IMG/VR virus record: IMGVR_UViG_3300045988_136773
DNA length: 64,000 bases
Direction: 5' to 3' (one strand)
Source of the DNA: a virus
This document shows positions 9,833 to 10,204 of the stretch, piece by piece (positions within the stretch are counted from its first letter, which is position 1; each line of letters starts with the position of its first letter). Made by a program: the position numbers and the translations under genes. The notes beneath the pieces are model-generated. The model had not been told where the DNA came from, did not search any database, and was given only the letters and a program-made list of their open reading frames with translations.

Positions 9833-10204
9833 ATGCAGAATGAAAATCAAACAACCAAGGAAATCAATGTATATGATGTTGTTTATACAATCCAGAAGCT
9901 TGGTATTTCATCAAACCTTTTCGGATTTAACTACATTCGATACGCAATCGAACTCATTGCAAAAGATGAATCCTATATGCATTCCATCACAAAACGCCTT
10001 TATCCGGAGATTGCAAGAGCATTTAATTCCACTAGTCAGCGAGTAGAGCGTGCAATTCGTCATGCAATCGATGTGAGTATGTATCGTGTGAATCATGAGT
10101 ATTGGGATATGATATTTGATGGAATTTGTACACTTGATGATGTACGTCCTACAAATTCAGAATTCCTTGCTACACTATACATATACTTAAAGTACAGATG
10201 CTGA
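9833..10204 (+). CDS. Spo0A C-terminal (DNA-binding) domain-only protein
   Basis: [31 protein letters not shown] matches the Spo0A_C signature (ITK.LYP.IA....T..[10 protein letters not shown]). At 123 aa there is no receiver domain. Confidence 0.7.
   Translation: [123 protein letters not shown]

Follow-up and report, generated by a model that had tools for sequence, protein, structure and literature searches.

A receiver-less Spo0A effector domain encoded by an uncultured phage, with a conserved recognition helix and a diverged sigma-A-activating helix

We describe a gene for a stand-alone Spo0A effector domain (Spo0A_C) in viral DNA, found in a stretch of 64,000 nucleotides (nt) of the IMG/VR virus record IMGVR_UViG_3300045988_136773 (the whole stretch is called the window hereafter). 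Its product, a protein of 123 amino acids (aa), keeps the DNA-recognition surface of Spo0A, lacks the receiver domain and is strongly altered in the helix through which Spo0A activates sigma-A. Our reading, to which we give a probability of about one half, is that the protein is a phosphorylation-independent binder of 0A boxes, and that at host Spo0A sites it is likelier a competitor or repressor than an activator.

9833..10204, plus strand: gene for the receiver-less Spo0A effector domain, 123 aa (Pfam, phmmer against PDB, AlphaFold2 (AF2) model, Foldseek, dN/dS)

The protein is one complete, well-folded, stand-alone Spo0A effector domain. A first-pass annotation, made from the DNA letters, had called it essentially only a Spo0A C-terminal domain, quoting a peptide that is indeed present in the translation, and the two checks that it proposed, a search with the Pfam Spo0A_C model and a structural comparison with Spo0A effector domain-DNA complexes, both agreed. 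The gene starts with ATG, with a GAGG ribosome-binding site at 9821-9824, and its product matched the Pfam family Spo0A_C (PF08769) across profile positions 4-104 of 104 (E=4.7e-30, 104.1 bits, against a gathering threshold of 25 bits). Searching PDB sequences with phmmer returned solely two Spo0A effector-domain structures, 1lq1_A (E=2e-21) and 1fc3_A (E=4e-21). The AF2 model, with a 45-sequence alignment as input, had a mean predicted local distance difference test score (pLDDT) of 91.9 and the six-helix effector-domain fold with a helix-turn-helix (HTH) seen in 1FC3 and 1LQ1. When the model was compared with PDB using Foldseek, the top seven matches were Spo0A effector-domain chains throughout, the best being 1lq1_C, the DNA-bound effector domain of Bacillus subtilis Spo0A (template modelling (TM) scores 0.82/0.90, root-mean-square deviation 1.4 Å).

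The absence of a phosphoacceptor receiver, also claimed at the outset, was borne out. An in-frame stop precedes position 9833, which is the first start codon after it, so that the open reading frame (ORF) cannot extend upstream; Pfam gave no match to the receiver domain (PF00072) in the 123-aa protein, nor a receiver match in the upstream 137-aa protein (p137); and the NCBIfam Spo0A model (TIGR02875) covered model positions 144-251 alone, with 95.2 bits, under its curated equivalog cut-off of 200 bits. Because the frame is closed, p137 has no receiver match and the TIGR02875 match is C-terminal only, a receiver domain can be excluded. The window protein is not a Spo0A response regulator proper: it has no N-terminal receiver with its phosphoacceptor aspartate, and it scores under the TIGR02875 cut-off.

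We compared the protein with B. subtilis Spo0A, using B. subtilis numbering taken from the 1LQ1 alignment, and with 15 receiver-bearing Spo0As from our homologue search as the conservation reference. It is identical to the B. subtilis effector domain at 41 of 101 aligned residues. The HTH (B. subtilis 193-223) keeps 20 of 23 near-invariant positions, including T194, K195, R211, E213, R214, R217 and H218, whereas alphaA-alphaB (157-192) keeps 7 of 18 and alphaE with its loop (224-245) keeps 3 of 11.

10037..10072, plus strand: recognition-helix codons, residues 69-80 (B. subtilis 210-221) (alignment)
10079..10144, plus strand: codons for residues 83-104, the diverged alphaE with its loop (sigma-A-activating region, 224-245 in B. 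subtilis) (alignment)

In the recognition helix, R211, E213, R214, R217 and H218 are the same as in B. subtilis and in 15/15 receiver-bearing Spo0As. The helix core is identical to that of B. subtilis Spo0A, and the differences in the helix and the KPTNSEF motif together are limited to S210Q, E221D and K246R (the window reads RPTNSEF). A loss of DNA-contacting residues, which the first-pass annotation had named as evidence that would speak against its proposal, was thus not seen on alignment. Since the base-reading helix is unchanged, we expect with fair confidence that the protein binds the same 0A boxes (TGNCGAA) as host Spo0A.

The near-invariant positions changed in alphaE are eight (W224M, M232W, E233D, G237D, S239I, V240C, D241T and A245V), to which the changes G227V and I229H are added; F236 and R226 are kept. 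We take G227, I229, S231, F236 and V240 to be the exact sigma-A contacts, on the basis of B. subtilis genetics. The Spo0A effector domain carries a sigma-A activator region beside the HTH, and B. subtilis mutations in this region abolish sigma-A-dependent activation and sporulation (PMC4690370). The altered alphaE (FDGICTL) is also present in a 70%-identical orthologue (P0003), and this conservation indicates a selected change and not decay. Divergence of alphaE was equal or greater in seven of 55 stand-alone homologues of up to 150 aa, the seven including the protein's own close orthologues (P0001-P0003). Among 52 distinct viral homologues from IMG/VR, the recognition helix is almost invariant and alphaE is the most variable segment, deleted outright in several of them (L113, L118, L133, L134 and L139). 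Set against bacterial Spo0A (B. subtilis, structures 1LQ1 and 1FC3, model TIGR02875), the window protein therefore shares the effector fold and the recognition-helix core, but it has no receiver or phosphoacceptor and has diverged in both the sigma-A-activating helix and alphaA-alphaB.

Receiver-less forms of B. subtilis Spo0A, namely the C-terminal fragment and the sad67 deletion, keep the native sigma-A-activating surface and activate transcription. In these forms, as is well established (references 23 and 24 of PMC10294663), the effector domain is freed from receiver inhibition, and because of this likeness binding by the phage protein is expected to be phosphorylation-independent; unlike them, however, the phage protein has not retained a native sigma-A-activating surface. 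With its phosphoacceptor domain missing, the protein would bind 0A boxes independently of the state of the host phosphorelay. With its alphaE surface heavily altered, it would, less certainly, occupy these boxes as a competitor or repressor rather than activate from them. Activation of early sporulation promoters by phosphorylated Spo0A (Spo0A~P) would then be blunted, while Spo0A-repressed genes would possibly still be repressed, with the net effect that an infected spore-former would stay vegetative and the phage would complete its cycle. The first-pass annotation had proposed a constitutive activator, repressor or competitor at host 0A boxes; given the conserved HTH, phosphorylation-free binding seems a reasonable proposal, but the changes in alphaE disfavour the activator.

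The gene is under purifying selection and is a working gene. Against the orthologue of a second sub-lineage (L005, 70% identical protein), we obtained dN=0.22 and dS=1.75 (saturated) for non-synonymous and synonymous substitutions respectively, a dN/dS of 0.13 that is like that of its neighbours. Separately, compared with 97%-identical relatives the window protein differs by T8A, E10G, Y14S and I117T, all non-synonymous, with zero synonymous changes; three of these lie in or beside the low-confidence N-terminal tail (residues 1-14, 9833-9875), and they are too few to interpret. The same tail has a 2-aa deletion in the close orthologue P0002.

The window belongs to an uncultured myovirus-like phage of ~130 kb. 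It contains genes for tail sheath, portal, head and tail-fibre-like proteins, and for replication (a split DNA polymerase, DnaB helicase, primase, clamp-loader subunits and a RecA-like protein), together with two Bro-N/ANT antirepressors, an Mrr endonuclease and a methylase; we did not find integrase or tRNA genes in the window. Near-identical metagenomic contigs are 100-137 kb long, and a near-identical IMG/VR contig, UViG_3300045988_122658 (L009), bears the same locus. We did not find any relative among GenBank phages (50,697 records), neither with megablast using 25 kb of the window nor with tblastn using the tail sheath and the sigma-like protein described below, so that no cultured relative points to a host. 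In GTDB genomes, the family is represented by six phage-sized contigs of metagenome-assembled genomes (MAG) with mixed bin labels. The closest named homologue of an antirepressor is 67% identical and comes from Peptostreptococcus anaerobius, which is not decisive for the host. As a side observation, a regulatory and accessory island follows the structural genes (14935-15834, plus strand; 20122-21117, 11711-12499 and 24499-25356, minus strand), with a restriction endonuclease of the Mrr type, a fusion of an N6-methylase with a type I specificity domain, and the two Bro-N/ANT antirepressors; relatives of the window phage bear several HTH/CI-like repressors in the same island.

Spo0A_C does not belong to the core genes of this phage family but entered one lineage as a single-gene insertion of ~550 bp (9676-10223). 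In the window, a 1035-aa tail-fibre-like gene, p137, Spo0A_C and a KTSC-domain gene follow one another on the plus strand, and next come two minus-strand genes, for a 243-aa sigma-like protein and for an antirepressor. The arrangement is kept in L001-L004, where Spo0A_C is 97% identical, and in the second sub-lineage, L005-L008 (70%). By tblastn, we found Spo0A_C in one of 69 IMG/VR loci with the sigma-like gene, the near-identical contig L009, and did not find it within 6 kb in the 68 other related phage loci. In the nearest relatives that lack it (L010, L011, L015 and L040), just a short spacer separates p137 from the KTSC gene, and in two of them (L010 and L015) the spacer holds a terminator hairpin; the insertion is deduced from this arrangement and from the single locus in 69.

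9712..9748, strand not assigned: perfect 15-bp hairpin between the p137 and Spo0A_C genes, at the left side of the inserted cassette (repeat search)
9774..9779, plus strand: TATAAT, a sigma-A-type -10-like hexamer ~54 nt before the ATG, with a weak -35 (putative promoter, read from the sequence)
10206..10216, plus strand: AACCTTGTATA, phage promoter-like motif of the downstream KTSC gene (copies in the window, relatives)
10224..10784, plus strand: gene for a KTSC-domain protein, 186 aa (Pfam PF13619, E=8.5e-11)
10777..11508, minus strand: gene for a divergent sigma-70-family-like protein, 243 aa (fold search)
11563..11602, minus strand: terminator-like hairpin, flanked by a 0A box and by the promoter-like motif of the sigma-like gene (compensatory changes in L005 and L007)
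11612..11618, plus strand: TGTCGAA, the sole intergenic perfect 0A box of the window, ~50 nt upstream of the AACCTTTTATA motif of the sigma-like gene

The 243-aa protein is probably a divergent member of the sigma-70 family. It had no Pfam match, a sequence-profile search of PDB was likewise empty, and in NCBIfam it gave sub-threshold matches only (sigma70-ECF, E=0.009; SigB, 0.048; SigBFG, 0.13; residues 26-112). Its AF2 model (pLDDT 82), however, matched sigma factors in 50 of the top 50 Foldseek matches in PDB, with probabilities of 0.75-1.0, E values of 7e-3 or weaker and TM scores of 0.3-0.4; a low global TM score is expected for a multi-domain protein. We found 430 homologous proteins and 69 IMG/VR loci, in phages of 80-250 kb. 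This is a core gene of a phage family whose members mostly lack Spo0A_C, and the protein family looks like one of unannotated phage sigma factors. In most of the 69 related loci the KTSC gene was found beside it (tblastn). The first-pass annotation had placed Spo0A_C next to a sigma-like gene on the opposite strand: the gene is sigma-like by fold and lies on the minus strand, but it is not adjacent, since the KTSC gene intervenes. Between the antirepressor and the sigma-like gene we also noted a small hydrophobic ORF (11624-11710, minus strand; 28 aa if started at TTG, 22 aa if started at ATG, …MLAALAVFMMWIGWEVCGFVCK). Its nucleotide sequence shows 100% conservation, and this extends even to the L005/L007 sub-lineage, in which the genes on either side are 87-89% identical.

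The same annotation had Spo0A_C followed by a conserved motif. The motif is present, at 10206-10216, but it belongs to the KTSC gene and not to Spo0A_C, because it also precedes the KTSC gene in relatives without Spo0A_C (L010, L014 and L015). In the window, the motif AACCTTNTATA has five exact copies against 0.4 expected, plus one variant, GACCTTATATA; the sites are 2381-2391, 10206-10216, 43926-43936, 54564-54574 and 61883-61893 on the plus strand and 11555-11565 on the minus strand. Every copy is intergenic and co-oriented with the downstream gene, often straight after a hairpin terminator, and related phages also have the motif, conserved, ahead of their KTSC and sigma-like genes. The motif may represent a promoter class read by the phage's own sigma-like protein. 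Spo0A_C has the TATAAT hexamer instead of this motif, which suggests, at the level of sequence, transcription by host sigma-A RNA polymerase; a scan for the sigma-70 promoter consensus around Spo0A_C gave fewer sites than shuffled sequences, none of them convincing, and did not list the TATAAT at 9774-9779.

Other motif candidates were set aside. The palindrome TTGTATACAA was not enriched (10 against 5.8 expected), the real motif being AACCTTNTATA; repeated k-mers of 9-12 nt gave nothing striking in the window; and ATCGTTATA, although recurrent upstream of the sigma-like gene in relatives, was not enriched in the window either. A second motif, AATCGTTATA(G/A), occurs upstream of the sigma-like gene in L011, L013, L014, L031-L034, L077, L080, L081 and L085, and also precedes the Spo0A_C gene of L005 (about 8090). 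With up to one mismatch allowed, its count in the window (23 against 24) shows no enrichment, and exact copies lie there at 13465 (minus strand) and 35840 (plus strand).

We next consider 0A boxes in the phage DNA. Perfect boxes (TGTCGAA) are not enriched in the window (four, against 7.7±2.6 expected), and three of the four lie inside long ORFs, so that phage DNA is probably not the main target. The remaining box, at 11612-11618, is on the upstream side of the hairpin at 11563..11602, whose stem is kept by compensatory changes in L005 and L007. This box, ahead of the sigma-like gene, occurs in all relatives that carry Spo0A_C (L001, L003, L005, L007 and L009), and we did not find an intergenic 0A box within 250 nt upstream of this gene in any of the 69 other family loci; the one match in L080, at -20, overlaps the start of the coding sequence of the sigma-like gene. 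All phages with Spo0A_C fall into one clade, in which the entire intergenic spacer is ~95% identical, and the co-occurrence of box and Spo0A_C therefore counts as one evolutionary event and not as independent evidence. In L005-L008, an extended 0A box without mismatches, TTTTCGACAAAA (read as TTTTGTCGAAAA on the opposite strand), precedes their own Spo0A_C start by ~65 nt (L005 8070-8085), which suggests autoregulation of Spo0A_C in L005-type relatives. At the aligned site the window has TCCGACG, with two mismatches.

Several points weigh against competition at host 0A boxes. One is the conserved 0A box in the phage's own regulatory region. Another is that, without a receiver, there is no phosphorylation-driven dimerisation, so the affinity for 0A boxes may be low. 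The sigma-A interface of the host may differ from that of B. subtilis. A spore-forming, Spo0A-bearing host is itself an assumption, as relatives come solely from metagenomes and from MAG bins with mixed labels: the bins are Clostridium, Ruminococcus, Oscillospiraceae and Clostridia, plus Muribaculaceae and Bacteroidaceae, both of the Bacteroidales. Finally, a stand-alone Spo0A_C protein (P0100) is also found in a non-phage chromosomal setting, a polysaccharide-synthesis cluster, and proteins of this kind can hence serve other regulons.

A constitutive activator is unlikely in our view. Like the B. subtilis C-terminal fragment or sad67 form, it would switch on Spo0A-activated genes regardless of the phosphorelay and push the host into sporulation or stationary-phase programmes, for example with the phage genome trapped in spores. 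Removal of the receiver relieves inhibition of the Spo0A effector domain, and in the window protein the HTH and the recognition helix are intact and F236 and R226 are kept. The possibility was also raised for phage homologues by Schwartz et al. 2023 (PMC10294663). However, alphaE is changed at most of its near-invariant positions, in B. subtilis activation is lost upon single substitutions in this region (PMC4690370), and in a window with a full set of replication and structural genes and no integrase found, forced dormancy is not obviously useful to the phage. We rate less highly a generic HTH regulator outside the sporulation regulon, which would see stand-alone Spo0A_C as a broad family of small regulators in Clostridia and mobile elements. 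We found 1549 homologues, mainly short stand-alone proteins; P0100 lies in a chromosomal glycosyltransferase/exopolysaccharide (EPS) cluster without phage genes, and P0004 in a temperate-phage-like contig among unrelated small genes. Yet the recognition helix is the same as in true Spo0A, and the DNA specificity should thus overlap the host 0A-box regulon. Locus L079 (GCA_053312695.1, JAZMMI010000027.1) has at 8001-8387 a stand-alone 128-aa Spo0A_C gene in a bacterial polysaccharide/glycosyltransferase (EPS-like) cluster with no phage genes nearby; judged by such gene neighbourhoods, receiver-less Spo0A_C proteins are used also as chromosomal regulators. That the gene is a functionless, decaying remnant of a captured host spo0A is barely credible: it is shorter than the bacterial gene and is an accessory insertion, but the selection signal effectively refutes decay, the ORF, ribosome-binding site and confident fold are all intact, and the gene is kept in at least two diverged sub-lineages.

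The protein might instead regulate the phage itself. It would bind the 0A box that precedes the sigma-like gene and also, in the L005-type relative, TTTTGTCGAAAA before its own gene; the altered alphaE might then suit the phage sigma-like protein rather than host sigma-A. To this we give a lower probability than to the constitutive activator, and a higher one than to the generic regulator. The position of the sole intergenic box, its presence in all Spo0A_C-bearing relatives with no intergenic counterpart in the other loci, the extended box in L005-L008 and the conservation of the altered alphaE within the lineage all favour it. The clade, however, is single and its spacer nearly uniform, which reduces the co-occurrence to one event; the window's own Spo0A_C promoter has no box; 0A boxes are under-represented in the phage; and the sigma-like gene is kept in 68 loci without Spo0A_C nearby, and so does not need it. 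More specific, and improbable in our estimate, ranking below the generic regulator and well above decay, is that a captured effector domain was recruited into a phage circuit, binding the box or boxes while its remodelled alphaE contacts the phage sigma instead of host sigma-A. If true, a host sporulation regulator would here have been built into an activator/sigma pair.

Truncated spo0A genes in phages have been reported before. Schwartz et al. 2023 (Schwartz, Rodríguez-Ramos, Shaffer, Flynn, Daly, Wrighton and Lennon; mBio, PMC10294663) described spo0A homologues in phages of the human gut virome that have the effector domain only, the receiver being missing, and proposed from bioinformatic work that they give signal-independent control of the initiation of sporulation. 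The general phenomenon was thus already known, and the functional suggestion of the first-pass annotation had also been made there. The window protein resembles those homologues in being phage-encoded and effector-only, with the same proposed consequence, and differs in belonging to a ~130-kb uncultured myovirus-like family, with no GenBank phage relative found, and in the unusual divergence of its alphaE region. Such genes are also well represented in databases: IMG/VR gave 287 matching stretches, with 53 of 75 complete ORFs examined having 150 aa or fewer, and PHROGs already has such families (phrog_24603 and phrog_37855). We did not find experimental studies of phage or stand-alone Spo0A_C proteins in the literature beyond the bioinformatic work of Schwartz et al. 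2023.

A parallel is offered by phage homologues of the sporulation sigma factors sigF and sigG, which lower spore yield and are thought to rewire dormancy (cited in PMC10294663). Here too the phage bears a copy of a host sporulation regulator, and a sigma-like gene lies one gene away; Spo0A_C is, however, of another protein family, and the sigma-like protein of the window is too diverged to be assigned to SigF/G (SigBFG, E=0.13) and is a core gene rather than an accessory one.

The modest new point of our analysis is the divergence of alphaE and the prediction that follows from it. Because DNA recognition is conserved and the sigma-A-activating surface is not, we predict that the window lineage and the viral homologues without alphaE are dominant-negative competitors of Spo0A~P and not constitutive activators. 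The window gene is a clean candidate for a first functional test of phage spo0A homologues. If the protein works as we infer, a single phage gene of 372 bp would override the decision of a spore-former to grow or become dormant, which would bear on how gut Clostridia persist and are transmitted, and on the dynamics between phage and host.

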